A stretch of DNA of 64,000 nucleotides from an uncultured Verrucomicrobiae bacterium (GTDB lineage Bacteria > Verrucomicrobiota > Verrucomicrobiia > Limisphaerales > Palsa-1400): positions 388,347 through 452,346 of the forward strand of contig CAVPOM010000009.1 in assembly GCA_963707025.1 (NCBI GenBank), in the 5' to 3' direction. A model generated the notes under the pieces. It saw nothing but the letters and a program-made list of their open reading frames with translations. It searched no databases and was not told the DNA's origin. This document shows, one piece after another, positions 42,039 to 64,000 of the stretch (position 1 is the stretch's first letter; every line of letters begins with the position of its first letter). Position numbers and translations under genes: made by a program.

Positions 42039-42686
42039 ATGGCTGAACCTTTGGCAGAACCTGGCACCGACTCGCTGTTGCCAACCAGGCAAAGCCTGCT
42101 TTCCCGATTGCGGGACTGGCAGGACCAGGCGGGTTGGCGCGAGTTTTTCGACACTTATTGGCGCTTGATCTACAACGTTGCGCGAAAGAGCGGCCTCAAT
42201 GACAGCGAGGCGCAGGAGGTGGTTCAAAACACGTTCATCTACTTGACTCGACGCATGCCCAGGTTCCGCTACGACCGGACGCGGGGCTCGTTCAAATCAT
42301 GGCTACGCGTGGTGGCGCGCTCGCGGATCAACGTTTACTGCCGAAGGGAAAAGGCCCGCGAGGAATTGCTCCGTGAACCAGTTTGCGACGACCCCAGTGA
42401 CGATGCTCTTCGCGACGCGTTTCCAGACAAGGCGGACGAGAGCCTGGACGAAGTGTGGCAGCGCGAATGGGAGCAGAACCTCGTAGCCACCGCTTTCCGG
42501 CACTTGCGCGCCAAAGTCAGTTCGCAACAATTGCTGATCTTCCGGCTGACGACTGTGGAAGAATTGCCTCTAAGCCAAGTGGCCAAGAAGCTCGGAGTGA
42601 GCCTGCCGCAAGTCTATCTGGCGCGGCATCGCGTCGGCAAAATGTTCAAGGCCGAAGTGCTGCGGTTGCGGCATGAGTCGGAGTGA
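42039..42686 (+). CDS. ECF sigma-70 factor (paralog of 24438-25073)
   Basis: PTRQSLLSRLRDWQDQAGWREFFDTYW, GSFKSWL, QVYLARHRV. Confidence 0.92.
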   Translation: MAEPLAEPGTDSLLPTRQSLLSRLRDWQDQAGWREFFDTYWRLIYNVARKSGLNDSEAQEVVQNTFIYLTRRMPRFRYDRTRGSFKSWLRVVARSRINVYCRREKAREELLREPVCDDPSDDALRDAFPDKADESLDEVWQREWEQNLVATAFRHLRAKVSSQQLLIFRLTTVEELPLSQVAKKLGVSLPQVYLARHRVGKMFKAEVLRLRHESE

Positions 42687-42731
42687 GTTGCCTTTGACGC
42701 GCGGATTGTTGATTCTGATTGTATTGACGTC

Positions 42732-45695: not shown

Positions 45696-45710
45696 ATTCC
45701 CTGCGTTTTG

Positions 45711-45739
45711 TTGAAAGATTTGGCGCAGCGGGGGCTTAC
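45711..45739 (+). promoter_or_regulatory. Putative ECF promoter TTGAAAGATT-N13-GCTTAC for the giant surface protein
   Basis: 7 nt before in-frame ATG 45747. Confidence 0.6.
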
Positions 45740-45746
45740 CAAGTGC

Positions 45747-48700
45747 ATGAGCATCTCGCCACACCAAGCCACGCAGTCGTTCGTTTTGCACGCATACAAC
45801 GCCGTTCGCCAAGGAGTTCTCAAACGATGGTTTCAATCATTGCTGGTTGGCGCGCTGATTCTGATATGCGGGTCGCAGGCCGCGCGGGCCGACTATCGTT
45901 ATTGGACGGACGCTGCCGGCGATCACTTTTGGAGCACGGCCGCCAACTGGACGCCGAATATTGCACCAATCTCCGGCGATATACTCGTATTTGGCGATCC
46001 CAACAATGACAATGGCAAAACGAGCGGAACTACAATCGATGATATCACAAATATCAACGTGCAGGAGCTGCGCGTGGGAGCAAATGCCACCAGTTTTACA
46101 CTGATATCAACGGCGGGAACGTTGCATATTTATGGCCGGTTGTGGCTTGACGACTCGAGCGACCAGCCAGGTCTGTCCGTGAACTGTCCGCTAGTGATCG
46201 AAAATGGTGGCAACATCTTGGTCCAAAGCGTCTACAACTCAACGGGAATAGCTTTTAACGCGCCGGTTGTGTTCGCCGCCGGCGGAGCAATCACTGCTTA
46301 TGGCCCAGATGCGACTGATATAGGTGTAACAGTCAACCGCATTAGCTTCAACGCCGGGTTAGTTTGCACCAACGACCTGCACGTGGAGGGCCAGTCCCTC
46401 AACTTTAGTGCGCAAATCGTGTTTAATGATCTTACTGTCTATGGGAACATGTTCTGTGACGTGTTCTCCGCAGGAGGAAGCGAGGGTCAAAGTTGGATTC
46501 AGTTTGCTGGCACCAACGACAACTATATTCAAGAGACCCTCTATTTACAGGCCTCGGACGGCGAGTATTATCGTTTTTCCAAGCCTTCCAATCGGCTGGT
46601 CGCTCAGCAAATCGATGCCGCCGCGCCGATCTCCATCCAATTGGACAATCCCGGTAATTTCGGCGCCGCCTCGACGCTCATCATCGAGCAGGGGGCGGTG
46701 GTCAATTTAAGCGGAAACAACCCAATAATCGGGGTCGTGCGCCTTGAACATCAGTCCGCTGATGCGACCCCTCCGGTTCTTAACGTGGGAAACACCGTGC
46801 CCGAATTTGGCCCTGGCTCGGCCATCTTCGTTATCCACGACAGCTCACAGGGGAATCCTCAGATCCAAGGCAATATTCGTCTTGACGGGACCCAGATCAA
46901 TGTTGACGGGGCGGTTCCAAGTTTCCTGGAAATGGATGGAAATATCCAGGGGTCAGGATTCAACAAAACCGGACCGGGTACGCTTCTACTCAACGGCGCC
47001 AACAATTTTACGGGCGGGGTGACCAATTCGGGCGGCACTCTGCAGCCGGCCAACACAGCGGCGCTCAACATCGCAAGCAGCGGCTCGCTCCACCTCAACG
47101 GCGGATCGCTTTCGGCGAAATACCTCAATCTTGCGAACGTTCCGCTCTATGTTGACGGCCCATTCTCGGGATTGCAGGCATACACTCCGTGGAACTGGAG
47201 CGGGCCCGTGTTTCTTAATTCCACCCTGGCCGTTACACCCATTGATTTGAATGGGACCAACGCCGCGATCAACTTTTCCGGCCCAATCACGGGCCCGGTG
47301 GCTCGTCCTGCAAGGCGCGTTCTTGGCGACCGGCTCAGTCGTGCTTTCCGGTCCGGACGCCAACACGTTCACCGGCCCGATCACACACGGCTGTCTCCTC
47401 CTGGAGTTTGACAAGCCAGCGAACGTTCCGGCCTTTAGCGGTCCGCTAATCGTCGGCGGCGGGGGCCCTTATAATGTTGAGTTCGCCGAGGCGCGTTGGC
47501 TCAACTCGGAGCAAGGGGCGACGCCGAATGTGACCCTTTACAGTAACGCCATCGTCAACTTGAATAACTTCAATGAGAATTTCGGAGCCATAACATTCAA
47601 CGGCGGCTTGATCGAGACGGGCAACGGCCAGCTTTCCCTGGCCGGGGATGTCACGGTCAATCCCACCGGCGCCACGGCAACCATCACTGGTAACGTGGCG
47701 CTCGCGTCAGTCGGTAGCGCGATCTTTGACGTCGGAGCCGGCGGTGTTGATCCCGACTTATTGATCCAGGCTTCCGTAACCGGCACAGCGCCGTCGGTGT
47801 TTAAAACAGGGCCGGGCATCCTGCGGTTTGCCGGAACCAATACTTTCACAGCTGACATCGGGGTGAGCCAAGGGACGCTCGAGGTGGGGAACAATCAAGC
47901 GTTGGGAAATCCGCTCAACGTTTTGGCTGTTGACTCAGGAGCCGCCCTCCAGGTCGAGCCGGGCCCGACTGTGCCGAACCCGATCAACTTGTCCGGCAAT
48001 CTTGCTGTCCCGGCCGGTCAATCAGTCGCGTTGACCGGCCAGCTCACGTTGCAAGCTGACACGACGATAAACGTCCAGGGAAATAATTTATTGCTTGTTA
48101 ACGCGGCCATCACCGGCAGCGGCTCGCTGACCAAAGCCGGCACTGGAACGCTGTTCTTCGGTGGCACCGCCCCAAATACCTACAGTGGTGGCACTCAGGT
48201 CAGCGAAGGCACGCTCGTTCTCAACAAACTCAGCGGCGCCGTGGCTGTGCCCGGGCAATTGACCATAGGCGACCAGAACCCGTTCAGCCACGGCGGCGCC
48301 TCCAGTGTCGTCCAATACGGCAGTAATTGCGTCGGTGGCAATGTCACGGTTAACGGGAGTGGCAATTGGAGTCTGTCCGGAGGTTCGCAAAGCTTCAGCG
48401 CTTCCAATGCCGCCCTCGGCCCGGTCTTGACGCTGCGCGGCGGTGGCAGTGTTCAAACCGGGACAGGAGTCATCAATATTCCAACAAATGGCGATATTCA
48501 GGTCATTCCCGGCAACTCGTGGACTTCGATCATCAGCGGAAATATCGGGCTCGATCCGGGGCCGCACAATTTCGATGTAAGCCAGAGATTGTACACGGTC
48601 GCGGGGCCGGAGTGCAACATCACGGCCAACATCAGCCAGAACTCCGACGCGGCGCAACTGATCAAGACCTCGTCCGGAACTCTCTTATTGACAGGGACCA

Positions 48701-51700
48701 ACAACTACACTGGCAGCACGATCGTCTCAAACGGAACCCTCGAAATCGACGGGTTGCAACCGGCAAGTGCGGTTCAGGTCTATGCCGCCTCGTTGCAAGG
48801 ACGCGGGTCCCTTGGACCCTTGGAACTGGACGATCCCAATGCCGTCCTTATTCCGTCTGGTATGCTTTGCCCCGAATTCAATGAGGGCGCGACTCCCGGC
48901 GGGACGCTACAAGTGAATCTATCGGGCGAAACCCCGGGCGTCCTATACAGCCAGCTTCACGCCACGGTAAGCGTGAGCCTGGCCAACCTCAGTCTCAGCC
49001 CAACCTGAACTTTCCCTCGCAATACGGGGATCAATTCACGATAGTCAAGAATAACGGAGGCGCGGCGCCAACCGGCGCTTTCAACGGCCTCCCTGAAGGT
49101 TCCCTTTTTCCAATCTCCGGCGAAATGTTTCAGATTACATATCACGGTGGTTCCGGCGGAGACGTTGTCCTGACTCACCTTTCTCCGACAAATCAACCCA
49201 ACGTTGCTACATGGATCAACACCTCCGGCGGTGATTGGAATAACGGCGCCAATTGGACCACCGGCGTCGTTCCCAATGGGGCCGATGCTGTGGTGGCTGT
49301 CAGCACCGCGTGCATAATCTCCGATAACGCGAACGTCTCGCCTGCCCAAATGCTGTTCAACAGCCCGCTAGCCACCGTCGGCGGAAGTGGTAATCTTGCT
49401 GTAAGTGGTTTCTTTGAGTGGGAAGCCGGGACGTTCAACGGCTCAGGAAGCCTGATGGCCAATGGCGTCCTTCACCTATACTCCCCAACGTCCAGCACGC
49501 TTTCTCTCATCGGTGAGTCCCTGGTTAACTCCCTCTATGCAACGTGGGGCGCAAATACCCCCATAGTTCTGAGCAGCGGCGCCATGCTTTCCAATACCGC
49601 CAGTGGCACTTTTGATTGCGAGTCGGATGGGACGATTCAAAACGGTTCGGGGACGAATCTGATCGCCAACAACGGCGTGTTCCGCAAGATTGAGAGCATC
49701 GGGACGACGAGGATTGTACCGCCGTTTAATAACTCGGGTATCGTGAAAGTCGTGACGGGCACGCTCGATTTGGGGGGCGGCGGAACCTCAACCGGCCAGT
49801 ATGAGGTTAATTCGGGCGCAGCGCTTTCATTCAGCGCGGGAATTCACACCGTTTATTCCTACATCAGTGGCGCAGGCGACCTCTATCTGCTTGGCGGCAC
49901 GGTAAGCCTGTATGGACCGGTGAGCACCCTCGGCGCGCACAATTTCACCGGCGGCACTGTCAATCTGGGTGACAATTACGATCCCGGCAGCAACGCCGTG
50001 AGCATTGGCGCTTGCACGGTCAACTTCGTCGGCACCAACCCGGTTACGACCGGCTCGCTGACGATGGGCGGTTACGGCACTTTGGGCGGCTCCAACATTG
50101 TCACCGTCACCGGCCCGATGGTTTGGAACAACAGCTTCACGGTCTCTGGCAGCAACAGTTTGATCGCCAGCGGCGGACTAGCGATCGCACAGGGAGGAGG
50201 CTTGCTCGGGCGCACCTTGTTGAACACCGCTTCTGCGCTCTGGTCCAACAGCAGCTTCGGCGGTCTGACACTTGGCTTCGGCGCGACTATTTCCAACGCG
50301 CCGGGAGCAACGTTCGACTGCATTGGCTCTAACAATATCAATTTTACTACGGGCGGTGGAATGGTCGCTAACGGCGGACTGTTTCGGCTCATCGGCCCGC
50401 CGGCGACGATGACCATTTCGACACCGTTCAACAACAGTGGCGTCGTCGAAGTGCAGGCTGGAACGCTGAGTCTTTCCGGCGGGGGAACGAACACGGGCAC
50501 CATCACTGTTTTTGCCAACGCGGCGCTCTCTTTGGGCAGCGGCTCGCCCAACCAGTCTTTCGTCCAAAGTGCGGGAGCGAGCATCACTGGTCCCGGCCAA
50601 CTCATGGTCACCTCCTCGCTGGACAACGCCAATCTTGGCGGCACGGTGAATCTCGGCGGCAGCAATATCTTCATCGGCGGCGCTGCCAATCTTACCGGCA
50701 ATTATGTCTGTTCCAACGTAGCACTCGTGATCGGCGCATGCGCGGCCAACTTCAACAGCAGCAATGTCATTTCTCCCTCATCACTGACGCTTGGCGGTTA
50801 CGGCTCGCTGGGCGGGTCGAATCTCGTGACGGTCAGCGGGCCGATGATTTGGAACAGCAGTTTCGGCATCACCGGCAGCAACAGCGTGATCGCCAATGGA
50901 GGATTAACGATTAATCCGGGCGTCAGTTTAATTGGCCGGACCTTGGTGAATATGGCCTCAGGGCTATTGAGCAATGACGTCCTTCACGGCATAATCCTTG
51001 GTGGAGGCGCGATCCTCTCGAACGCACCGGGGGGCGCGTTCGACTGTGTAGGGCCTAACGACATCGGTTTCACAACCGGCAGCGGAACGGTCGCCAACGC
51101 CGGAGTCTTACAGGTAAGCGGTCCATCGGCGGGCACGACCATCGAGGTCCCGTTCTTCAACACTGCCGTCGTGGAGGTCCAATCCGGCGTGCTGAGTTTG
51201 GCCGATGGCGGAAGCTCCATTTCCACGAGCAACTCAATCGCGGAGATCGCCGTGTTTTCAAACGCGACGATTGACTTCCATGGAGGTACATTCTTGCTGG
51301 ATTCGTCCGCTATTATTGACGGGCCGGGAAATTTGAGCGTCAGTGGCGGAACCGCGAACTTTGCTGGAGAAGTGGACTTGCTGGGCACTCACACTTTCGG
51401 CGGGGGCACTGCCAACATCACCGGGTTCTATAACTGCCACAGCAATGCCTTGGTCATTTCCGGTGGGACTGCTAACTTCAACGGCTCCGGCGTCGTCGCG
51501 CCCTCGTCCCTGGTTCTTGGAATCGGCGGAACGCTGGGCGGGTCCGATCCAGTGACGGTCAACGGCCCAATGGCGTGGAACGGAGCTAGCGCCATCAGCG
51601 GCACAAACAACGTCACAGCCAACGGGGGACTGACCATCGGTCCGGGAGGCGTCTCCATCTCAGGACGAACTTTAGTCAACGACGGCGCGGCGCTTTGGAC

Positions 51701-52613
51701 CAACAACGGCCCTGGCACGATTGTCCTTTACGGGGGCGCGATGCTTTCCAACGCGCCAGGGGCGACATTCGATTGCATTGGCAACGCAACGATCAGTTTT
51801 AGCACCGGCGGCGGCGCTGTCGCCAACAACGGATTGTTCCGAATCCGCGGCGCCGGAGCGGGAACAACCACCGAAGTCCCCTTCACCAACTACGGCACCG
51901 TCGAAGTGGACGCCGGGGCCTTTGGCGTTTCCGGCGCGCCTTACATTCAGACCAGCGGTTCGACTTTCCTCAACGGCGGCAGCATCGCCAACTCGACGGC
52001 ACCGCTGCAAATCCTGGGCGGCGCGTTAACGGGCAGCGGATCGATTTCCGGTTCCGTGACGAATGCCGCCCTGCTGAATCCCGGAGCGCCCTTTGGCCAG
52101 GCGACGATTGGCGGTTCCTACACTCAAACAACCGGCGGCGTGCTGGCGATTACTCTGGCAAGTGCAACTCCTGGAACTGGTTTCAACAGCCTTGTTGTCG
52201 GCGGCGCGGCGAATCTTGGCGGCGTGCTTGCCGTGAGCGTCACCAACGGCATTCAATCCCCAATCGGAACCCAGTTCCAAATTCTATCCTGCGCCAGTCG
52301 CAGCGGCGTCTTCAGCGCTGTGAACGTTCCGGTCGGGATATCTGTCACTTATAGCAATAATGGTGTTTTCCTCGTCATCACCGGGCCAGTGATTACGCCG
52401 GCCGTGCTCCAATCTCCGCAGGCGTCAACCGGCCAATTCGGTTTCTTTTTTCAGACCGCGTCGAATCAAAGCTACACGATTCAAGAGACCACCAATCTTC
52501 CACCGACGAATTGGTTTTTTGTCACCAACTTCACCGGTAATGGTTCGGTTTTTCCATTCATCACCTCCCTCAGCAACACGCCACAAGGTTTCTTCCGAGT
52601 GCGCCAGCCGTAG
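45747..52613 (+). CDS. Giant (~2290 aa) secreted adhesin-like protein with autotransporter-associated beta-strand repeats; frameshifts near 47298 and 49000
   Basis: Repeated K.G.GTL.L.G.N.YTG motifs; three ~180-240 aa internal repeats; C-terminus YTIQ.TTNL...NW...FFRV. The three ORFs join seamlessly across short homopolymers. Confidence 0.85.
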
Positions 52614-52619
52614 AGAAGG

Positions 52620-52810
52620 CCCGCAAACTCAGGACGGAAATTCCTGGCATCTCGATACCCAAGCGGCCCATATTTCCGGGCGTGGCGTTCCACCATCATC
52701 GTTCGCAATACGGCCGCTTCGACCCGCTTGATAACATCCATCACCAACAACCGCAATTGGCGGTCAAAAGTGTAGCGATGCCACACTCTGTCCAATGTCG
52801 TGCCTGGCAG
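52620..52810 (-). pseudogene. Abi-family (Abi_2/AbiF-like) gene fragment
   Basis: GTTLDRVWHRYTFDRQLRLLVMDVIKRVE..LRT motif. Confidence 0.65.
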
Positions 52811-53044
52811 CGAAGGATTCATCCGGTCGTTTGGCCTCCCCACCGCAATCGTGGCAATAAAAACCCCGCCACATTTGAGCTTGGCTTGCGCCAGAGGCTT
52901 GGCAGGTATGCTGGTAACAACAATACCCAACAGTTGGGTTTCGTCAACTCTCATTTTGTCTGCATTTTTCATTCGACCAAGGGGCACTGTGCCATCAATG
53001 GATGGGGAATGTCATCAATGGAACGACAGGGGTGGCGATCTCGC

Positions 53045-53716
53045 CTATCGCCGGAGGACGATGCCCAACATCAGCCCGAACGAAGTGAGCAGGGACGCAA
53101 CCAAAAGGTAGGTGAACCAGTCCCGCTTGGTCAGGCGCTGCTCCAACCGCTCCCGTTCCTTGTTCATTTTTTCCCGCGCCATATTGAAATCCTCCTTTGC
53201 CTGGTTCCACGATTCGGTTCCTTGATTGAGATCGTCCTGGATTCTTCGGGCGACAGCCTCAAGCTCCCGCGCTTTCGAGCATATTTGGGTGGCGATACCG
53301 TGGATGACATCGTTGTAACCTGACACCGTCATGTCGTATTGCTTTAATCTTCCGTCTATTGCTTCGATGGTCGTGTTGGACTGAGCCGCAATCTGTCGGC
53401 GGTGGTCGGCTTGGACGGCGTCCAACAGTTTTTTGGAGTCACTGGCAAGCCGACGCGCATCATCCAGTGCGCTGTTGAATTGCTCCGAAAAACGGGCGCG
53501 GTGACTGGCTTGGTCTTGCTGCCAAACTTTTTGAGAATCCCTCAGAATATGAGGCAACCGTCCGATGGCCCACCATTGGGCCTTGGTCAACAAGGCCAGT
53601 TGCACCGGAAACGAGTTTTCATCGCCGCTGCACCATTCGGCCAGAATTTTTCGCAGGCGCTTCGCCTCTGCCGGATTGACGCCGTCACACAACAAATCAA
53701 AGTCGGTGTTGATCAT
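53045..53716 (-). CDS. Coiled-coil protein with C-terminal TM helix (integrative-element gene)
   Basis: Heptad-rich sequence; hydrophobic C-terminus. Confidence 0.6.
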   Translation of the reverse strand: MINTDFDLLCDGVNPAEAKRLRKILAEWCSGDENSFPVQLALLTKAQWWAIGRLPHILRDSQKVWQQDQASHRARFSEQFNSALDDARRLASDSKKLLDAVQADHRRQIAAQSNTTIEAIDGRLKQYDMTVSGYNDVIHGIATQICSKARELEAVARRIQDDLNQGTESWNQAKEDFNMAREKMNKERERLEQRLTKRDWFTYLLVASLLTSFGLMLGIVLRR

Positions 53717-53719
53717 AAA

Positions 53720-54254
53720 TCATTCTCCAAAATTAAGTTGCGGTTGCGGCCTCTCGGTTTTCCATTCCCGTTGAGGCGGCAATTTTGGTTCGGGCATGAG
53801 CGCCGTTGGCAAAAGCGACTCGGCAATCGAGTCGTACTGTTGAAACATCCGTTGCATGGCCCACTGGATTTCCCCGGCCAGCAAGCGTTCCAAGTGGCCC
53901 GCTTCGATGCGGGACAATTCGGCGAAGCTTAAACCGTGCTTCGCGTTGGCCTCGGCCTTCTCAGCGGCGAGCAACGTCGTTGGCGTGATGGTCGGTAGGG
54001 TTATGGTTTTCGACCCGAATTCCGCCAATTGCTGTTCCAGCGATGAGCCTTTGAACAGGTCGCCCCGCGCCTTGGCCGGATTATGGACAACAACATAATC
54101 CACGCGGTCGCCCGCGTACAGGAACATTGCCGTGCCATCCTGAATTAGCTCCTGGGCGTCCTCGCAGCCGATGCAATTCACGGCGGCCGGGACGGCGGAT
54201 TGGAGGCGGGGAACAACTTCTGTGCATAATACGTCTCCTGCATGTGGGCTCATA
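53720..54254 (-). pseudogene. Probable deletion chimera of two integrative-element genes
   Basis: N-part MSPHAGDVLCTEVVPRL...EDAQELIQDG switches abruptly to an unrelated C-part. Confidence 0.4.
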
Positions 54255-54543
54255 ATCATTGTCCTTTCTGGTGGGGAAACAAAAACGCCCGTCCCGGGAA
54301 GGAGCAGGCGTTTTACGCTTTGGGTTTTATTTGAGGTCTGGTTCCGGGTCTCAGGGAGGCGGAACCAACAGCGGCTCGGGGCCTCTGTCAATAATTTATA
54401 GCACAGGAATGAGGGCTATTGCAGGGGATGGCCGTTGCCTGCCAGTTGGACCGAGACGACCCGGTGCTAATGGACGTAAAGACGCATAAACCCCGCTCTG
54501 CAAAGGGTTTTGGTGGCATTCACCAGTCAAGATTTGTCGCCAT

Positions 54544-55776
54544 TCAGGCGGCACGCCGGGCCTGGGCGGTCGTAACTTTGATGATCTTGCCGGCGGTGGC
54601 GGTCCCGATCTTCCAAAATGCGGCCGCTTCTGGATCCGTCACCAGCCCTTTGTAATGGCGGTGAATGACATCGGGCGAATTGCCCGCCCATTCCGCCGTC
54701 TTGCCCTCATGCTTGTGGAAAGCGAAATGGTGAGAAACGCCAGTGTGCCGCATAACGTCCGGTCCCCACGGCTTGACGGCTTCCGATCCGCCCGCGCGCC
54801 CGCCATAGCCCGCCCGGCGCTTCACCGCATCAAAGTCCCGGCGCCAATTTGAGCCGCGGATCGGTGTCTGACTCAAAGCGTGCGGCGCCAGCAAAGCCGC
54901 CGCGTTTTTGGAAATTTCCACCACCCGCCGCTTGCGCATCTTCGCCGCGCCGCCCTGGATTGTGACCGTCCGGGCCTTCAAATCCACGCTTTCCCAAGTG
55001 AGCCGCGCCAATTCCGCCGGGCGGATCGCGCAAAACAGCCCCAGCGCCACGTAGGGCAGGCAAACCCCATCCTTGTAGCCTTGCGCCTCACCTACCAGCT
55101 TACGGACATCGGGCAGGCTGAGAATGGCTGGCTCGCTATCGTCAACCTTGATTTTTTCGATGTATTCAACCGGGTTATTCTGGCAAAACTGATTCTTGAC
55201 ACACCAGCGGAAAAACCCGGTCAAAACGCTGCGGTCGCTCACCCGCGCATAAAGCCCCTTGCCCGGCTGATTGATAAACGCCTCGATGTCCAGCTTGAGA
55301 ATGTCGCTCGCCATTTTTTCGGCGTGATCCTTGCAAAGCCGCCCGATTCGATAGCTCAAGTTTTGAAGTGTGGCGGGCCGCTTGTTTGCCGCCTTCTTCT
55401 CCTTTATGAACCGCGCGAAGGCGTCAACCAATGGGATTTTCACCAGCGGTTCACGGTAGTTTGCCTGGTAAAAGTCCACGGCGGCCGTCAGCGTTTTGCC
55501 GGCCGTAAGTGGCTTGCCGGCCAGGCGGTGCAAGGCGGATTCAGCGTCCGCGATTTGATCCGCCGTAAGCCGCGTGGACACCATGCTCGCGGACGGCTGC
55601 GGGATGCCCTGGCGCTCCAATTCAAGATAATGCTGGCGGACGGTAGCCTCGCCCATTGTCTTGAAATTCTGCCGGATTTGCTTGCCGTCCGCCCGGCAAC
55701 CCGTCACGCGGAATACCTCTTTGCCGCTTGGATTTTTGAATGGTTTGATCTGAAAATGAAGTCTGCTGGCTTTCAT
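54544..55776 (-). CDS. Tyrosine recombinase/integrase 1
   Basis: LFCAIRPAEL, AKMRKRR, DVMRHT, WAGNS..VIHRHY; abuts the tRNA fragment. Confidence 0.92.
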   Translation of the reverse strand: MKASRLHFQIKPFKNPSGKEVFRVTGCRADGKQIRQNFKTMGEATVRQHYLELERQGIPQPSASMVSTRLTADQIADAESALHRLAGKPLTAGKTLTAAVDFYQANYREPLVKIPLVDAFARFIKEKKAANKRPATLQNLSYRIGRLCKDHAEKMASDILKLDIEAFINQPGKGLYARVSDRSVLTGFFRWCVKNQFCQNNPVEYIEKIKVDDSEPAILSLPDVRKLVGEAQGYKDGVCLPYVALGLFCAIRPAELARLTWESVDLKARTVTIQGGAAKMRKRRVVEISKNAAALLAPHALSQTPIRGSNWRRDFDAVKRRAGYGGRAGGSEAVKPWGPDVMRHTGVSHHFAFHKHEGKTAEWAGNSPDVIHRHYKGLVTDPEAAAFWKIGTATAGKIIKVTTAQARRAA

Positions 55777-55864: not shown

Positions 55865-55916
55865 CACTGCTTTCGTAAAGCATGGGTCGCCGGTTCAAGT
55901 CCGGCAACTGGCTCCA
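55865..55916 (+). tRNA. 3' fragment of tRNA-Thr(CGT), an att site; the 5' acceptor strand and D-arm are absent
   Basis: TGCT-TTCGTAA-AGCA anticodon arm, GCCGG-TTCAAGT-CCGGC T-arm, AACTGGC-T-CCA; no complementary GCCAGTT upstream. Confidence 0.88.
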
Positions 55917-55964
55917 TTTCCAATGTGTTGTAACACAATGGGTTGGAGGAGGAGAGGGCGGCGG

Positions 55965-56040
55965 TGGACACCAAAATGGACACCACTTTGGCAAGGATGT
56001 CAGAATCCTGCCAGAATGCTGTCAGTGTTACGCCAGTACC
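55965..56040 (+). repeat. Direct repeats typical of an att arm
   Basis: TGGACACCA x2 (55965, 55977); YGYCAG hexamers at 11-bp period (55998, 56009, 56020, 56031). Confidence 0.7.
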
Positions 56041-56082
56041 CGCTAACGCGAACGCTCGCACTTCATTTACGATCATACCGTT

Positions 56083-57105
56083 ATGAAGCGCTATCGTCTA
56101 ATCTATCGCGGAATCCGCGATGCCTATTACTGTTTCGACACCCTCACCAAAAAGCGGGAGAGCCTGGGAATCAATGACGCCGGCGAAGCCCAGCGCCTGA
56201 TTGAGGCCCGGAACGAAGCCGTCCGCCATGTGGAAATGAATCTGCAAATCGCCCAGGTCTATTTGCAGCACAGCGACCCGACCATGGCAACCCGCACATG
56301 GCAGAATGTCATGGACGCAATGGGTCCACTCAAAACCGGCCCGACACAGGCCCGCTGGACATCGGCCATGCGAGACAAGGCATTTGATCTCATCCGCAAC
56401 CGGAAACTCATCGAAACAGCCTCAGAGCATTTCATGCAGGTCCTGACGACAGGCACGATCTCCACCAACATGTTTTTGCGCCGGCTGCACAACTACGCGA
56501 GCGGGATGCACTGGCTTCCCTGGCCGGTGCTGCCGAAACGCCTCTGGCCTACCGTGAAGCACAAGGAACGCCGGGCGATTACATTTGAGGAACACCTGAA
56601 AATCATTGACCGCGAACACAACCCGGAAATCCGGGCGTATTATCAATTTTTGTGGCACTTGGGCGGCTCGCAAACGGACATCGCGGAGTTGACCGCCGGG
56701 GACATTGACTGGAAAGACCATACCATCTCCTACCAACGCTGCAAAACCAGCGTGCCGGTGATTATCACCTTTGGCGCGGAGGCTGCGAGCTTGTTGGAGT
56801 CGCTTCCGAAGTTTGGCCCGTTGTTCCCACGCATGGCACGAATCAAAGAAAACCATCGCGCCAAGATGTTCATTAAGCGGCTCAAGACCGTGGGGATTAC
56901 CGGCATTTCCATGCACAGCTACCGTTACGCATGGGCGGAGCGGGCCAAGACCGTGGGGATGCCCGAACGGTTCGCGCAGCAGGCGCTTGGGCACAGTTCC
57001 AAAGCTTTTGCGCGAGCGTATTCCAAAAAGGCCAAAGTCATCGTTCCCTCATTGGAAGACTACGAAAGGAAAATCGTGCCGATGCAGCTGGCGGTGAATC
57101 AGTGA
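56083..57105 (+). CDS. Tyrosine recombinase/integrase 2
   Basis: KRESL arm-binding N-terminus; MHSYRY, ALGHSS, ARAY. Confidence 0.88.
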   Translation: MKRYRLIYRGIRDAYYCFDTLTKKRESLGINDAGEAQRLIEARNEAVRHVEMNLQIAQVYLQHSDPTMATRTWQNVMDAMGPLKTGPTQARWTSAMRDKAFDLIRNRKLIETASEHFMQVLTTGTISTNMFLRRLHNYASGMHWLPWPVLPKRLWPTVKHKERRAITFEEHLKIIDREHNPEIRAYYQFLWHLGGSQTDIAELTAGDIDWKDHTISYQRCKTSVPVIITFGAEAASLLESLPKFGPLFPRMARIKENHRAKMFIKRLKTVGITGISMHSYRYAWAERAKTVGMPERFAQQALGHSSKAFARAYSKKAKVIVPSLEDYERKIVPMQLAVNQ

Positions 57106-57190
57106 AGGCGAACGCCAAGACCGGTGACGGCGTGCCGTGGCGGATTCTATGGCACCAGGGCGGCACTCTGAGGTTATCGGTGGTTACGGT

Positions 57191-57219
57191 TTGCAAGATT
57201 TGGCCCACCGCTCCGTAAA
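57191..57219 (+). promoter_or_regulatory. Putative ECF promoter TTGCAAGATT-N13-CGTAAA
   Basis: Same spacing as the other four motif copies; 43 nt before ATG 57263. Confidence 0.5.
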
Positions 57220-57262
57220 GGAGTGGACCCGAGATTCTTATCAGTTAGCATGTGAAAAATTT

Positions 57263-58210
57263 ATGAGCGACCAAATGTTTTCATGCCTCGCCAGCGGCTC
57301 TGGACTCGCGGGCATTTCCGTTGATGAGGCGCTATTGTTCGGAACCGGTGGCGCGATCTATCCCCGCCTCATGATTCCCGTTAAGCTCGATTACTATCCT
57401 CTGCACGAGAAGCTCGCAGATTATGTTTTCACTGGGCTTGACGCGCAATTGTCGCGCGATAACGTTGGAAAATTGGCGGACGCAATTCCTTTAAGGCTGG
57501 TTCGTGTTCAGCGCACCCACGCGCATTATGTCGGCCCTGAATACCTGTCCCTGGAGTTTCCCATCGATGCGAAGCGTGTCACGGCAATGGAACGGCAGCG
57601 TGATGGCAAAGACTTGGCTCTGAACATTGATTGTCAACTGACCGTTGAGGAACATCGGCCCATCGAAGGAGATCCAAAGACGCAGCGCCCGGCAATATGG
57701 GGAGTTCGCAGTGTGCTCCGCCTGACGGCAAAATTATCCATCAGGATTCCTCGGTCAACCTGGATTGAACGTGTTTTACCAAACACGGGCTTTGGGGTGG
57801 TTCACCTGGTTGAACTTCCCGCAGTGCCAATCGAAAATTGCCAAGCCCTTAATCGGTCCTACGAAGCTCTGCGCCAGGCACAATCACTCCACGCAGAAGG
57901 CTTCTATGATATGGCCGTAGCCAGATGCCGCACGGCGCTCGATCCGTTTTTCACGTCAGTTCCCGTGGACCCAAAAAACAAAGACTCGGCCCGGCAGCCC
58001 GAATTAAAGCGAAGCTGGCAAACGCGGCTTGGTTCCGCTACCTCCACCTGGTTGAACAGCGCACTTACCGCGATCAAAACTGCTGCGAACCCCACGGTTC
58101 ACCTTCCCGAACCGCACTACGACCAATTTGAGTCGCAGATGATCCAAGCCATCACCACCACCGTCATCGCCTACGCTGCGCGGACGATGCAACCAGACGA
58201 CAAAAAATAG
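57263..58210 (+). CDS. Hypothetical cargo protein; beta-rich N-terminus and helical HEPN/Abi_C-like C-terminus
   Basis: YDMAVARCRTALD...KTAANPTVH helical pattern; located between int and xis. Confidence 0.55.
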   Translation: MSDQMFSCLASGSGLAGISVDEALLFGTGGAIYPRLMIPVKLDYYPLHEKLADYVFTGLDAQLSRDNVGKLADAIPLRLVRVQRTHAHYVGPEYLSLEFPIDAKRVTAMERQRDGKDLALNIDCQLTVEEHRPIEGDPKTQRPAIWGVRSVLRLTAKLSIRIPRSTWIERVLPNTGFGVVHLVELPAVPIENCQALNRSYEALRQAQSLHAEGFYDMAVARCRTALDPFFTSVPVDPKNKDSARQPELKRSWQTRLGSATSTWLNSALTAIKTAANPTVHLPEPHYDQFESQMIQAITTTVIAYAARTMQPDDKK

Positions 58211-58286
58211 TCACGTCCGCTCCCGCGAACCAACGCCATGTTTCTCCACCCTGTGCGGGACTGCAATTCGGACGCGCCTTTCACGC

Positions 58287-58649
58287 TCAACCGTTTTCGC
58301 CAGCGGTGGTCGCTAAACTTGCTCGTTCTAAATTCGGGGACAAACCGTGCCGCGCTCCATTTGGAGAATGACTTTTCTGGCGCACATTTCTTTTGTGCCA
58401 GTGCTGGCTGATGGTGTTCGTCATCTTTGCCAGCCATGCCCGGTCTTTGGTCAATTCCGTAACCTCTGCCGTGGAAAAGAACTTGACGGCGTTTTGTGGC
58501 GGGTTTCCGAGGGGTTTCAGCAGACGAGTTGAAATGAGGATCGGCATGTCATGGAACTGGCAACCGAGCACCCAGGCCGCTTGTTCGACAGTCAGCCGGG
58601 CCGGGAGCTGCCCAACCAACGACAGAAATTGATGTTGCTCGTCTTTCAT
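58287..58649 (-). CDS. Excisionase-like winged-HTH protein
   Basis: LPARLTVEQAAWVLG...LLKPLGNP...KFF; convergent with the integrase. Confidence 0.7.
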   Translation of the reverse strand: MKDEQHQFLSLVGQLPARLTVEQAAWVLGCQFHDMPILISTRLLKPLGNPPQNAVKFFSTAEVTELTKDRAWLAKMTNTISQHWHKRNVRQKSHSPNGARHGLSPNLERASLATTAGENG

Positions 58650-58684
58650 TTGAGTTTGTAATCCTTGATTACCGGATGCCGGTT

Positions 58685-60215
58685 TTAGTACTGCCGGGGG
58701 GAACCGCCCACAATCACGCCACCGGAACGGAGAACGGCCGGTGGCGTTGCCATTGCGCCAGGCTTCGTGAACGCCGGATAAGGCGCCGTGCCGGCTTCCC
58801 GCGCCATGTCCTCGTACGACCGCCAGGCATACATCACGCCGCCCACGATGCAGTACTTGGCCGTCACGCTCGTAAGCTCCTTGTCCACGCCCAGGACATA
58901 AACCGACTTGTCTGACAAGACTACCGTTGTGACCAAGCGTCCGTTGCGGTCCGGCGTGGTCATCACTCCCACGAAAAACACATCATGGGAAACGGTCGGC
59001 ACAGACTCAGACGCCGCAAACACAGATTCCGCGACGGTCCTGGCATCCAACCGCGGAGCCGCGGGCAGCGGCCTGCCAATCAGATTTGGCTTTTGCGCCG
59101 GCGCAACGGCCCCGATCTGGCCGGCAGGCAGGCCCGCCACGGCACCCGCCGACGGAAGCATCATTCGCGCCCCCTGGCACAACCCGCGCCACCGTCCCGC
59201 CATCCACACGATTAGTCTGATGTTGCACCGCCGCCAAAGCGTCCACCGATTGCCCGAAGAACTTATGCACGACATGCTTGGAAATCATCCCATAGGCCGG
59301 AAACAACGACGCCAGGATTATCGGAAACAGCAACGCCCACCGCCACGAAATGCCCCGCGCCGCCGCCTCTTTGTCCGCTTTCATGGCTTCAATCCCGATG
59401 CCCTTGGCCGTCTCGTAACAATCCGCCAGCCGAAAATCCATCCGAAAACTGCGCGACCATTCCGAGGCTTGCCCAGGCGCTCCCGTGAACACGTCAGGGT
59501 AAGCCGCCATGCGGAAGAACCTGGGAGGCTGGAAGATGCCGATCTTCTTCTTCCCCACGTTGGTCAGGTATATGTATTCCTGGGTGAAACTCCGCAGCAT
59601 CTTGTCCACGTTTTCCGGCTTCTGCGTATAAACGTAAATGTCGTCACCGAGCTTGCGATGCTGCGACAGGTAAAAGGGCATTTCCTCCGGGGCTTCCGCA
59701 TACTTGCGCACGTTGTAAAACAACTGGCATTCGTCCAGGTGGTAAACCACGCCCTCTCCGGCAAAGCGGCCCTTTGCGCCCCACGGCGAGAAATCCAGGC
59801 ACACCGGATGCGACGGCCCCTTGTCGCCCGACGCCCGTTGATTCACTTTCGCCACCAACTCCGCGCCGGTTTGCCGGTAACGGTAGAACTCCTTCAACTC
59901 ATCATCGCCCAGGATGCGAATGCGCGAAGGCACCAGCACCATCGCCACGCCGTCCACCACCTTGCCGACCAGGCCGGACGCAAATACCCCCGCCCCCGCT
60001 GGACACTCGAAATCGGTGGCCGGCCGCCAATGGTCGTAAAGGCAAACATCATGGGATGGGTAATGCTCCGCCAGGTAATCCGAGAACTCCGGCAGCTTGA
60101 TCGGGAGATTGGTCACGATCAAACGATGGCCGTGCAGGATTTCGTCCCGGATGTTCACCATCCCGCGATAGGACTTGCCCGACCCGATTTTACCGCTGAC
60201 AAAATAGAGACTCAT
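58685..60215 (-). CDS. Inovirus pI / Zot-like morphogenesis ATPase; probable frameshift near 59170-59240
   Basis: VSGKIGSGKSY Walker A; IVTNLP; LDECQLFY; SQHRKLGDDI..YTQ; CYET; TM helix. The C-terminal part continues in ORF 58685-59275. Confidence 0.88.
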
Positions 60216-60408
60216 AAAGGGAGAAAAGATCGCGCTCCAAATACGGGAGCGGTTCGTCAAGAAGATCAATCACGCCATCCAGCCGGCACATCATGTGCGC
60301 GTAGTCCAAGCCGCCGGCCCAGGTCCGAACCAAGCGCCGCCCCCGTGTCACCACGACGCAGGTGTTCTCAAAACGCCTCATACCCAATCCTGGAGCGTTT
60401 CTTTTCAC
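60190..60408 (-). CDS. Small hypothetical phage protein
   Basis: GTG start overlaps the upstream stop (ATGTGA); fills the gap in the operon. Confidence 0.35.
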   Translation of the reverse strand: MKRNAPGLGMRRFENTCVVVTRGRRLVRTWAGGLDYAHMMCRLDGVIDLLDEPLPYLERDLFSLYESLFCQR

Positions 60409-61082
60409 ATTGTGGGCGCCTCCCCGCCGATGTTGCGGACTTGCCGCCAAATCAGTTGATAGGCAATCCCGGTGCAGGCCAGGGTGAAACCCGCGATAAA
60501 CCACGGCCAGAGGAACTCTTGCGCCTGGTCAGGCCGGATGTAGCCGTAATTCACGACCGAGACGCCGCCAAACCCGCCCGCCGCCAACGAACCGCTGTCG
60601 CAAACGAACGTCACGACGTTGACATTGGTTCCGCTCAAATCCATCGCCGGACTGAACGTGTCCCCTTCGTGAGTGTCCGACGGGCAAAACGCCTGGAAAT
60701 AACACCCGCCTGGAGGCACCAGAACCCAGGACAGCGCCGAAACGCCCTGCACCGGCCAAAGCGTGTAGTAAATGCCGCTCCCGCCAGGCCTGGTGCAATC
60801 CACCTCGACAGCCGCGCCCGTCTCATTGTCCCAAATCACCGGGACCATGACAGATCCGTCAGACAGCACGCCGACCGGCCCGGACCCGATCCCGACGCCC
60901 GTAACTGTGTAACCATCGGCCCGCGCCGTCGCACACAGGAGCAGCCCCGCGCCGCAGATGCCCCAAAACAACGCCCGGCGCCGTCCCGCCTCCCCATCCA
61001 CGACCGCAATCAGAGTCGCGCCGCCAAGAACTATCGCCGCCGCAAAGCAGCCAAACACGCGCAAAGCCAGGTAATCAATCAT
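60405..61082 (-). CDS. Inovirus membrane protein of unknown function
   Basis: N- and C-terminal hydrophobic helices around a beta-rich, Cys-containing domain. Confidence 0.6.
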   Translation of the reverse strand: MIDYLALRVFGCFAAAIVLGGATLIAVVDGEAGRRRALFWGICGAGLLLCATARADGYTVTGVGIGSGPVGVLSDGSVMVPVIWDNETGAAVEVDCTRPGGSGIYYTLWPVQGVSALSWVLVPPGGCYFQAFCPSDTHEGDTFSPAMDLSGTNVNVVTFVCDSGSLAAGGFGGVSVVNYGYIRPDQAQEFLWPWFIAGFTLACTGIAYQLIWRQVRNIGGEAPTM

Positions 61083-61085
61083 AAG

Positions 61086-63161
61086 TCAGGAGATTAGGGA
61101 TTTGAGCACCAGCATGGACATGGCCCAGATCGGCCCCGCCGTGAGGCGGATGAAGACTTACCAGAGCACCGAGCAGATCAGGAAATTGATGGGGAGAAAT
61201 TGATCGGCCAGCCAGTAGGCTTGCTGCAAAGCCGATGTCAGGCCGTCAGGCCGAAACGGGATCACCCCGCACGCCCCAAACCAGGTGGAACCGACGCCCG
61301 TTGTCACCGCGACCCCGATAAACAACGGAATGGCCCCGGCCAGGGCCACCATCAGAGGCAAATACACCGCGCCCGACAATTGACCCACCGAGTTGCCCAG
61401 AACGCTCATGCGGTTGGCTTGCAGTTGCGTGGTCCCGGCCAGGCCCGCCGAGTATTTCTCAAACAGTTTCATCACCAGCAGGATGAAAACCACGCACGCG
61501 ATCCACTGTTCACAAGTCCGGCTCACCCCGGCCAGGGAAGCAATCCCGGCATTGTCCATTGGGTTGAGGTCAAACGAATAGGTCTTGTCGCCCATCACAC
61601 AGTTCAAATTCCAAAAACTGCTGTCCAGCGACGAAATCGGCCCTGTCCCCAAGTCGTTTGCGCCTGCTTGCGCCAGGGACCCTTGCAAATTCAAATTGGC
61701 GAACTGCGAAGCCGCGAACCCGGCCAGGTGATTGGTCATGCCCGCCACATTCGCCCCGTCTGACCAGACCCGCGACAACCCCCCAACCGCGTCATTGGTG
61801 GCAGCCAGCGACGCCGCCGCGAAATTGGACACGATCCCAAACTGGCCCGCCATGTCCCCGGTATTGGAAACGATTTGTTCTACACCGTTGGACATGCCCG
61901 CCAGCGTCCCGTCAGCGATCCAGAGCAAATTGGAGATTCCCCCAAGCCCTTGAATGGTATTGCTGCCCACGCCTGCCGCGTTATTCGACATGCCGCCCAA
62001 TGCGCCCTGGATGCTCCCCAAACTCGCATTGCCGGAAGAAATGCTGGAATTGATGGCCGCCAAATCGCCGTTGGCCGCTGTCAGCAATGCGTTTCCGGTC
62101 CCCTGGCCGCTCAAAATGCTGCCCTCGATACCCCTGATGGCTCCCAGGCCCGCATTATTATCTACATCCAGCTTGCCTACCCCGTTGGCCACATTGACCA
62201 ATTCCGCAAATACCGCGTCAAACCCCGTTATCAGGGTCGCATTGGACGCCAAGCCGGAACCCGCCATGCCGGCATAGTTGATCGGTGAATTTGTCCCGCC
62301 AGGATAGACGCTGTCGCCGCCTGCCCAGGGAATGGTGGCCCCATTGTTATTGACCACCGAGCCGGACGAAGCCCCCGGAGGAATGGCCGTCCCGACCAAA
62401 TTCGTTGAGGCAATGGTCCCCGTGAAATTGGGGTCATACCCCGCCATCGAACTGCATCCGCCCGCCTTGCGGCCCCCATCCCCAATCAACGGCAAACTGA
62501 CTTGCGTGGACTGCGAACCCATGCCGCCGCCTGTTTCCGTGACCAAAGCCAGGTTGTTTGTCGGCCCCGCCGTCGTGCAGATCTGCGCCGACCCGCCCGC
62601 CGGCACATAAATCTCATTATCCCCGCAGGCGTCAATACTCAGCAAAACGCCGTTGTCCACGTTGGCAATCCCATAGGAGTTGCCCACGCCGGAAGTATTG
62701 TTGATCGTGACGCAAAACAGGGAATTGGTTGAAATCGCCGGCCCGGCCCCGCCGCCACTGCCACCCCACATATACACGTCTATTGTGACCGGACTCCCGG
62801 CGGATGTTCCAGGCAGCGTGTAGGTTGTCCCGCTGGAGAATTGGACGCTCGTAACCGCGCTCCCGTCCAGCCAGGCGCAGTTGTTGGCCCCGCCCACGAA
62901 CGAAATCGTGTCGCCCTGATACACCGGCCAGGCGCTTCCCCAACTGACTTTTGTGTAACTGGCCCCTGCCGCCAGGTACGGCGCCGGAAAATTGACACTG
63001 ATGTTGAAGCCCGTGTAGGAGTCGCGCAGCGTGCAATACTGTATCCCCTCAGACGTGCCGTTGTTGTGGAAAATGAAGGTGTTGTAAAGGCTCACCGGAG
63101 GTTGCGCTTGCACCGCCAACCCGCCCAGTACCATCAGCCCGCCAAGTAACAGTTTTTTCAT
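61086..63161 (-). CDS. Inovirus pIII-like attachment protein with an extended multi-TM (pVI-like) C-terminus; in-frame TAA at 61158-61160
   Basis: Signal peptide; Gly/Ser/Asn-rich domains with Cys residues; several TMs; frame continues VFIRLTAGPIWAMSMLVLKSLIS* to 61086. Confidence 0.75.
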
Positions 63162-63164
63162 AAA

Positions 63165-63236
63165 TCACCATTTGAACAGCCAGAACAGAGCCAGGGGGAT
63201 GGCCATGCCGGCACAGAAGCAAATTAGTTGAGGCAT
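63165..63236 (-). CDS. 23-aa hydrophobic minor coat protein (pVII/pIX-like)
   Basis: MPQLICFCAGMAIPLALFWLFKW; AAAGGA ribosome-binding site upstream; between the coat and pIII genes. Confidence 0.6.
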   Translation of the reverse strand: MPQLICFCAGMAIPLALFWLFKW

Positions 63237-63322
63237 AAATCCTTTTTGTGAGGCTATCGGGAGCCAGCCACCCTTTTCATCGGCCCATGACCGGCCCCCG
63301 ACGTTTGCAGGAGCACTACAAA

Positions 63323-63535
63323 TCAGCCGCGGATTTTCTTCACCAGACGGAAGATCACCCAGAAGCCCAACACGCCGACCATGAAGGTCGCGATTGCCGT
63401 GAACGCGGTCGTTGCCGCCGCCGTGATGGTGGACGGGTCAGCAAACACCGGAGTATAACCCCCGTCAGCCAGAGCCGAATTCAGACTGATAACCAGAACC
63501 GCCAGGAGGCACAGAATCAACTTCATCTTTTTCAT
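63323..63535 (-). CDS. Inovirus major coat protein (pVIII-like)
   Basis: Signal peptide ending ALA; amphipathic then TM helix; basic C-terminus FRLVKKIRG; AAGGA ribosome-binding site. Confidence 0.85.
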   Translation of the reverse strand: MKKMKLILCLLAVLVISLNSALADGGYTPVFADPSTITAAATTAFTAIATFMVGVLGFWVIFRLVKKIRG

Positions 63536-63659
63536 ACTTACTTATCCTTTCACTTCATTGTTTTTCCCCAAGTGAACAGCCCGCAAACGCGAACCACGAA
63601 CCCTTGGAAATCCCTCTTCCAATCCCTTCCCCATCAGGGCAGAAGGTTTCTACAAGGAG

Positions 63660-63701
63660 CCTTACCAGGGGGCGGCCTGAAGGCCGCCCCCCTTGGTAAG
63701 G
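63660..63701. other. Long GC-rich hairpin; candidate rolling-circle origin or packaging signal
   Basis: CCTTACCAGGGGGCGGCC-TGAA-GGCCGCCCCCCTTGGTAAGG. Confidence 0.55.
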
Positions 63702-64000
63702 AATCCATTGTAACTTTGACACGCGCCACAATAGCTTTGGCATTTTATCCCTGACATCTGATGGCGGATTTTCGCCGCTCCGTCCCACACCGTGGCTCAC
63801 AAGGAGCTCTAGGCCGTGGCGGATGCCGGACTGCCCGCATTCAGGGAGGATGTCTCATCGCAAAGCGCGTCCCGGCCAGCGCCTTCGCCAACCGCCCTCG
63901 CACCATCCTGTTTTCTCATGTGTCCATCGCCGCCGCGTCTTTCCCCACTCGCGTCAATACCCGCTATCAAACGGATAACAGAAGCGGAAAGCGTCACGGA

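Follow-up and report, generated by a model that had tools for sequence, protein, structure and literature searches.

We describe a filamentous-phage operon coupled to an integration cassette at the right-hand end of a 64,000-nucleotide stretch of DNA (the window) from an uncultured Verrucomicrobiae bacterium. The window corresponds to positions 388347–452346 of contig C9 in the host genome, G000, and its right edge coincides with the end of that contig. An initial annotation had offered two alternatives: an integrase-encoding inovirus that borrowed the integrase and excisionase genes (int/xis) of host-lineage integrative elements, or an inovirus nested in such an element. We give slightly better than an even chance to a composite reading, in which the window holds the integrase end of a large element that is bounded by attachment (att) sites, carries the phage operon, and is excised as a whole unit, copied by rolling circle, and extruded through a host secretin. 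The gene content and order of this element can be read directly, its att pair is accompanied by flanking repeats, and its plan recurs in other genomes. Many elements of the host lineage share its chassis (int/xis, a two-gene regulator, and a distal h113/DUF6573 module), into which several kinds of mobility module are plugged, the phage operon among them. The coupling of the phage module to host-lineage int/xis, as first proposed, is thus retained, and the choice between the two alternatives dissolves because the att-bounded composite uses phage genes as a recurring mobility module (in genomes G029 and G065 and on both paths in the host genome itself). The two merge because int/xis, regulator, and end modules are common to many elements that lack the phage assembly gene pI.

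The integrase end begins with a 49-bp copy of the 3′ part of tRNA-Thr(CGT) (55868–55916, plus strand), whose last 21 bp (55896–55916) form the att core repeated at the element's far end. The initial annotation had placed a tRNA-Thr(CGT) gene at this site; what is present is a 3′ repeat of that tRNA, and ARAGORN predicts no whole gene in the window. A whole tRNA-Thr(CGT) gene, followed by a near-identical integrase, is located on contig C17. Two GGACACC repeats (55966–55984, plus strand), likely integrase arm sites, precede the gene for a tyrosine integrase of 340 amino acids (aa) (56083–57105, plus strand; PF00589 at 43.8 bits, over the cut-off), which belongs to a host-lineage family with paralogues. 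Next come a cargo gene of 315 aa (57263–58210, plus strand; 357 aa from an upstream GTG) and an xis-like gene of 120 aa for a predicted directionality factor (58287–58649, minus strand). All further features lie on the minus strand. They are the pI/Zot morphogenesis ATPase gene (about 509 aa; 58685–60215), a conserved 63-aa open reading frame (ORF) (60190–60381), a gene for a likely virion-tip protein of 225 aa that is exported or membrane-bound and whose C-terminal end is aromatic and hydrophobic (60405–61082), and a pIII-like adhesin gene (61086–63161; 691 aa in the copy on contig C7). These are followed by a 23-aa hydrophobic minor-coat-like ORF (63165–63236), a 70-aa pVIII-like major coat precursor (63323–63535), a GC-rich hairpin (63660–63700), and the last 63 codons of a 219-aa HUH rolling-circle Rep (63809–64000), the remainder of which lies on the overlapping ends of contigs C16 and C7. 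The phage genes, the cargo gene, and the integrase all stand where they had been placed, and no secretin gene follows pI, in agreement with the initial annotation. Its statement that the window holds no Rep gene is contradicted by the Rep codons at the window's edge, and it had overlooked the 63-aa ORF, which sits between the membrane-protein gene and pI and recurs in relatives. The reported 35-bp gap between the pI stop and the start of the co-oriented xis-like gene is exact (58650–58684), and contigs from 3 of 4 independent runs span the junction gap-free.

In profile searches, pI matches Pfam Zot (PF05707, 50.1 bits against a cut-off of 20.3), PHROG 197 (E 5e-18), and the M13 pI family PHROG 1675 (E 2e-12). 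Together with a hydrophobic segment at 294–312, this gives the element the Zot-like ATPase with a transmembrane segment used as an inovirus marker (PMC6813254). The 70-aa pVIII-like protein has a signal-like stretch and one further hydrophobic stretch, the leader-plus-helix shape of a major coat; its match to the PHROG major coat is weak (E 0.027). The 23-aa ORF has a counterpart at the same position in 6 of the 8 relatives examined, and all 4 of its changes relative to the C16 copy are synonymous. Both conform to the short, single-transmembrane structural proteins expected of inoviruses, the 23-aa ORF being shorter than the 30–90 aa range given for them (PMC6813254). Between the window and C16, the pIII-like gene has accumulated 30 synonymous and 10 other changes. 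In the Rep family, HxH and YxxK are conserved and PF23343 is matched by 17 of 20 members; the Rep of the window element falls below the curated cut-off (E 0.0017), and we count it as a rolling-circle initiator. Its single-sequence fold had a predicted local distance difference test (pLDDT) score of 41 and was therefore left unused. On C16 and C7, Rep is preceded by a 93-aa gene resembling those for single-stranded DNA-binding (SSB) proteins, which is kept in relatives. As for the xis-like gene, the nearest Pfam-bearing Atlas clusters are Phage_Cox and HTH_17 (at 0.90–0.91), and this lead, together with gene position, predicts an excisionase. The hairpin at 63660–63700 gives the 273-nucleotide intergenic stretch between Rep and pVIII a stability z-score of -4.3, equalled in none of 200 shuffles; it is a candidate origin, packaging signal, or terminator. 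Secretin profiles have 6 matches elsewhere in the host genome.

Past position 64000, the element continues on 2 contigs whose ends overlap the window: C16 (98.9% identity over 6.9 kb) and C7 (99.7% over 3.2 kb). Both carry the 219-aa Rep gene, the SSB-like gene, a repeat-rich promoter region, and regulator-like genes of 329 and 402 aa. Further out lie a prepilin-motif gene, GT2, GT87, and GtrA genes, more cargo, and then a module of h113 (113 aa) and DUF6573. A distal att core, matching the tRNA-Thr 3′ core in the window, closes both paths (C16:161561, 21 of 21 bp; C7:515777, 20 of 21 bp). On both contigs it is preceded by 3 GGACACC repeats, like the 2 beside the window integrase, and followed by the next element's integrase. 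The att-to-att lengths of these alternative paths are 27,681 and 39,980 bp. No inner direct repeat or site matching the dif pattern was found in either path, and none of the genome's 22 PF00589 matches lies in them. At 58660–58685, where an independent phage boundary had been contemplated, and around the phage genes, no att- or dif-like boundary was found. Among the scanned proteins inside the att pair, which cover only part of the cargo ORFs, there are no relaxase or type IV secretion proteins; a TrwC relaxase on C7 lies outside, past the distal att. For the 315-aa cargo gene and the 329/402-aa pair, in this genome's copies, no family was found in Pfam, PHROGs, NCBIfam, or PADLOC; one homologue among these cargo and regulator families has weak helix-turn-helix (HTH) matches, and their Atlas clusters are unnamed.

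How widely is this arrangement shared? Single-sequence scans with pI returned nothing from viral or genome collections, and an alignment-based search found relatives at 117 loci (98 clusters at 97%), which we placed in a quick tree; we refer to other genomes by G numbers and to these loci by L numbers. Of the 31 genomes of the host family, 5 contain pI, as do 19 of the 401 genomes of the order. Its database homologues are named Verrucomicrobiae by NCBI, and 14 of 15 named pI relatives are labelled Verrucomicrobiota, the other (L027) being labelled as another phylum. GenBank phages gave 9 weak matches with coverage of at most 22%. The window pI falls in a clade of 20 rows (support 100). Enough sequence is available for 15 of them, and 13 of these, our own copy included, have xis, an integrase, or both after pI. 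Specifically, xis comes directly after pI in 7 rows; in 2, the two are separated by an SSB-Rep cassette with another Rep family; and in 4, pI is followed by an integrase of a second family. Of the other rows, 2 show nothing recognisable after pI and 5 are too short to tell. Of the 78 rows outside the clade, 3 have xis after pI; one of these, L035/L138, repeats the gene order of the window at a whole tRNA-Thr(CGT), with a pI only 31–34% identical to the window's. The pI-xis junction is thus a seam at which relatives carry an inserted SSB-Rep cassette or a different integrase, and the patterns suggest repeated pairing of integration cassettes with pI, or their exchange. Two distant pI relatives, L032 and L077, lie beside a glycogen-synthase-like gene, with no integrase recognised nearby.

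The long plan is seen most completely in G029. Its 19.2-kb unit has a perfect 29-bp repeat of the tRNA-Pro 3′ end at both ends. Besides a single integrase and the phage operon, it contains the h113 module and a cargo gene of 1628 aa, and at its far end, about 11 kb away from the coat genes, stands an open reading frame for Rep. That frame had been missed by the gene caller and the short-Rep profile; a description of G029 as lacking Rep was withdrawn once this second Rep family was found within its att pair. The remaining loci without Rep are truncated contigs. In G065, the order is integrase, xis, operon, Rep, cargo, and h113, with no att seen. Whole operons with Rep are present at L061, L075, L138, and L140, and G015 holds a broken copy.

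A number of observations weigh against a single large mobile unit. The unit is assembled from overlapping contig ends (99.7% and 98.0% identity over the shared 3.2 kb), rather than read from one contig. C7 and C16 are 97–100% identical in the phage part and 73–94% identical in the cargo. Homology to L075 ends just upstream of the 402-aa gene, some 290 bp short of the start assigned to it, and the cargo of L075 differs. The att-bounded distant relatives span only 6.9, 9.1, and 12.5 kb. Contigs from 10 of 111 related loci have terminal direct repeats, with unit lengths of 5.2–11.1 kb, and these circular-looking contigs are all distant relatives outside the 20-row clade. For this clade, neither a circle junction nor a particle was observed; low-depth contigs of the independent runs show no read joints indicating a circle, at a depth too low to weigh against one. 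The SSB-like gene matches no family in Pfam or PHROG. In all 12 full-length rows of the integrase family, the motif G-[GA]-[SA]-Q-x-D puts Ser/Ala-Gln in the place of the first catalytic Arg, which tyrosine recombinases usually carry there; HxxR, LGH, and the Tyr are kept in nearly all rows. Finally, Pf att copies can sit up to about 140 kb apart without delimiting a phage, according to the available portion of PMC7549136.

The step in identity between C7 and C16 and the end of L075 homology fit a smaller phage that is exchanged separately. Such a phage would be an ordinary integrase-carrying inovirus of about 10–11 kb, running from int to the 402-aa regulator and lying next to an older cargo island in a tandem arrangement; the distal att of the phage would have decayed or be atypical, and the far att would belong to another element. 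The 5–12.5 kb of other att-bounded or circular relatives and the tandem element arrays common in G000 are in keeping with this. Four features of the sequence speak for the larger unit: the core (at up to 2 mismatches) is not repeated inside either path; the distal repeats match those beside the window integrase, with no other tyrosine integrase between; the only Rep found inside the G029 att pair lies past the cargo; and the h113 module marks the distal end of the unit on C7, on C16, and in G029 and lies past the cargo in G065. We regard the small phage as possible, though distinctly the less probable account of the locus.

The phage genes of the window are damaged, and this too bears on how the element is read. 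Compared with the C16 copy, its pI, a single gene (60215–58685), is split by an extra base at 59156; its pIII-like gene has a stop at 61158–61160 where C7 and C16 continue to 691 aa. This frameshift and stop count against a working composite, and because of these two lesions the window copy may no longer work. Among 4 independent runs, the C16 state at 59156 is found in 1 and the C7/C16 base at 61158 in all 4. The C16 copy has different frameshifts, plus one extra base that fuses the pI reading frame into xis. A single 642-aa read-through protein of pI and xis was rejected as a general feature: it is confined to the C16 copy, and the stop is kept in the window, one C17 copy, and 3 runs. The best 5 of 41 database pI homologues span the entire 508-aa query. 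Since independent runs show the open states and bridge the junction, the lineage has open pI and pIII genes and a genuine pI-xis join. The window copy itself may be either broken or miscalled.

We consider it unlikely that the phage genes no longer form virions and persist as a decaying or host-retained membrane secretion module, a passive passenger of the island. Besides the lesions in the window and C16 copies, the broken copy in G015 would fit this account, as would 2 elements on C17 that retain int, xis, and just about 160 bp of the pI 3′ end. On the other hand, the lesions differ among copies, open states appear in independent runs, synonymous changes are in excess in the coat genes, and the whole operons of L061, L075, L138, and L140 come with Rep. 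Far less probable still is an artefact, in which the pI-xis join and the long unit would be collapsed repeats at long-read contig ends. C9, C16, and C7 do all end within the module, and near-identical int/xis copies exist on C17, but the junction is bridged in the independent runs, the pI-xis join recurs in 9 other pI clusters, and G029 shows the long plan on a single contig. The 2 C17 elements (C17:1–9341 and C17:223366–228081) are near-identical and carry the same int and xis genes; one stands at the whole tRNA-Thr(CGT) and the other at a secondary site within a host ORF. The element at C17:1–9341 also carries DUF5131 and AAA_25 primase-helicase genes.

Under the composite reading, the genes suggest a sequence of steps modelled on known systems. 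The integrase and Xis-like protein would excise the whole unit; the HUH Rep would nick an origin, possibly the hairpin at 63660–63700, and start rolling-circle copying; and the SSB-like protein would coat the single strand. pI would then drive assembly with pVIII and the tip proteins, and a host secretin would stand in for pIV, allowing export as long filaments.

The chassis extends well beyond elements with phage genes. The xis family is found in 24 of 31 host-family genomes and h113 in 17 of 31, and the 329-aa gene in 46 of 301 genomes of the order. None of 10 other loci with the 329-aa gene (about 1.5 kb of flank examined at each) has a pI, coat, SSB, or Rep match nearby. A sister element on the window's own contig, C9:21067–37885, is bounded by a 46-bp repeat covering the 5′ part of tRNA-Arg(TCT) and contains an integrase, SSB-like and Rep genes, an h113 module, and cargo. 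Its integrase, SSB-like, and Rep genes are 89–91% identical to those of the phage relatives L061 and L075, and neither pI nor coat genes were found there. The phage-bearing island is a candidate helper for this capsid-less element. Across the order, the 402/329-aa pair is also found at the head of unrelated early operons. At L006 (12060–12330), L075, L061, L029, and L067, the 329-aa gene is followed by short direct repeats and one inverted copy; the repeat sequence varies together with the 329-aa protein (TTTTGACC, ATGAAC, GTGACC), and these repeats may be binding sites of that protein. Genome G015 has a small tRNA-Cys element at L023:10258–15079 with HTH genes, an SSB-like gene, a short-family Rep, xis, and an integrase, and without coat genes; its att repeat lies 11.7 kb from the tRNA-Cys.

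The tip of the presumed virion raises a separate point. In all 20 aligned relatives, the pIII-like ORF extends about 110 aa past a hairpin and anchor helix, and its last 200 aa contain 2–4 hydrophobic segments (at least 3 in 11 of 20). A model of the C-terminal region (pLDDT 66) has a hairpin, a helix at 47–85, and then helices at 100–140, 152–164, and 167–199. In Ff/f1, pIII ends in a beta-hairpin and membrane helix, and pVI, encoded by a separate gene, has 112 aa and 3 helices, as given in the available part of PMC10175506; here, by contrast, hairpin, helix, and a helical block of about 110 aa would form one chain from a single ORF. The last 110 aa or so of the pIII-like protein may thus be a fused pVI. 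Profile and fold searches with the C-terminal 200 aa gave no significant match (best Z 6.7), which keeps the fusion a hypothesis, and the pVI-like part found nothing meaningful among GenBank phages. A natural pIII-pVI fusion, if true, would bear on how the tip terminates assembly.

The closest functional parallel is with the Pf prophages of Pseudomonas aeruginosa (PMC7549136), here compared on the excerpts available. These have 5 integrase types, tRNA sites, and HTH excisionases, and are att-delimited at 7.9–17.9 kb. Like Pf4 and Pf5, our element has its own tyrosine integrase and a predicted HTH excisionase, a tRNA 3′ att, and accessory genes; integrase types are swapped under one structural operon in both, and pIV is not among the core genes listed in those excerpts. 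It differs in size (27.7/40.0 kb here and 19.2 kb in G029, outside a range of about 8–18 kb), in the position of xis, which here follows pI at the integrase end, and in that its int, xis, and regulator families are common to non-phage elements of the host lineage. The second comparison is with the inovirus catalogue of Roux et al. (PMC6813254), from the part of it at hand. It contains 4 Verrucomicrobia species recognised computationally (5.7–11.9 kb; Opitutaceae, Verrucomicrobiaceae, and one unclassified) and describes wide exchange of replication and integration genes between inoviruses and other mobile elements. Those inoviruses share the host phylum, the pI marker, and the short single-transmembrane coat proteins; compared by description, they are smaller, and that description includes no large cargo island. 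Filamentous phages of this host group had been called barely characterised, which is true of experiments as far as our searches reach and has to be qualified by these 4 catalogued species. Third, the consulted part of PMC12715192 describes Vibrio inoviruses whose cargo is hypervariable and that use host XerC/D at dif, averaging 8.6 kb with about 1.9 kb of cargo, and gives 9.7–20.7 kb for integrase-encoding inoviruses elsewhere. Cargo beside a morphogenesis gene, lysogeny modules moved between unrelated elements, and tandem arrays are common ground. In contrast to such XerC/D-dependent inoviruses (IMEX), the element here has its own integrase and no match to the dif pattern inside its paths.

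From its gene content, the element is predicted to function like a Pf-type integrating inovirus and has the pI marker, short coat-like proteins, and rolling-circle initiator of inoviruses, but it is larger and rides on a chassis shared with non-phage elements. Verrucomicrobial inoviruses and integrase-carrying inoviruses are already known, and the basic finding is an extension of both. What is new is the size of the element, the chassis shared with capsid-less sisters, and, possibly, the pIII-pVI fusion. We found no description of these elements in the titles and abstract openings searched, a coverage that leaves subscription papers outside.

In filamentous phages, filament length follows genome length, so extrusion could offer a route for large cargo. 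If the whole unit is packaged, an abundant soil group would have a way of moving large cargo that needs neither conjugation nor lysis, and the spread of many capsid-less rolling-circle elements in these genomes would be explained. The prediction is of circles of 19–40 kb and of particles several times longer than Ff. A broader proposal, which we put forward tentatively and think more doubtful than probable, is that islands of 20–40 kb move as single-stranded DNA in extra-long filamentous virions with a one-chain pIII-pVI tip, phage extrusion replacing conjugation and helping capsid-less sisters through shared SSB, Rep, and end modules. As part of the same speculative proposal, and with the same reservation, the cargo of such islands in soil Verrucomicrobiota would be glycosyltransferase clusters and large exported proteins.

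Other mobile DNA surrounds the element. An integrase of the neighbouring element (54544–55776, minus strand), outside the phage unit, adjoins the tRNA 3′ repeat. It belongs to an island left of the att site (42108–55776) that also holds two 223-aa genes (also on C7), an extracytoplasmic function (ECF) sigma factor, a Ser/Thr kinase-WD40 protein, and repeat-rich exported proteins; the opposite end of this island was not located. An insertion sequence at 40000–41472 has more than 30 near-identical copies in the genome. Elsewhere in G000, tRNA genes are densely arrayed at C2:106545–112159 (10 predicted) and C8:72468–81806 (11 predicted); both arrays include a further tRNA-Thr(CGT) and likely lie on mobile DNA.

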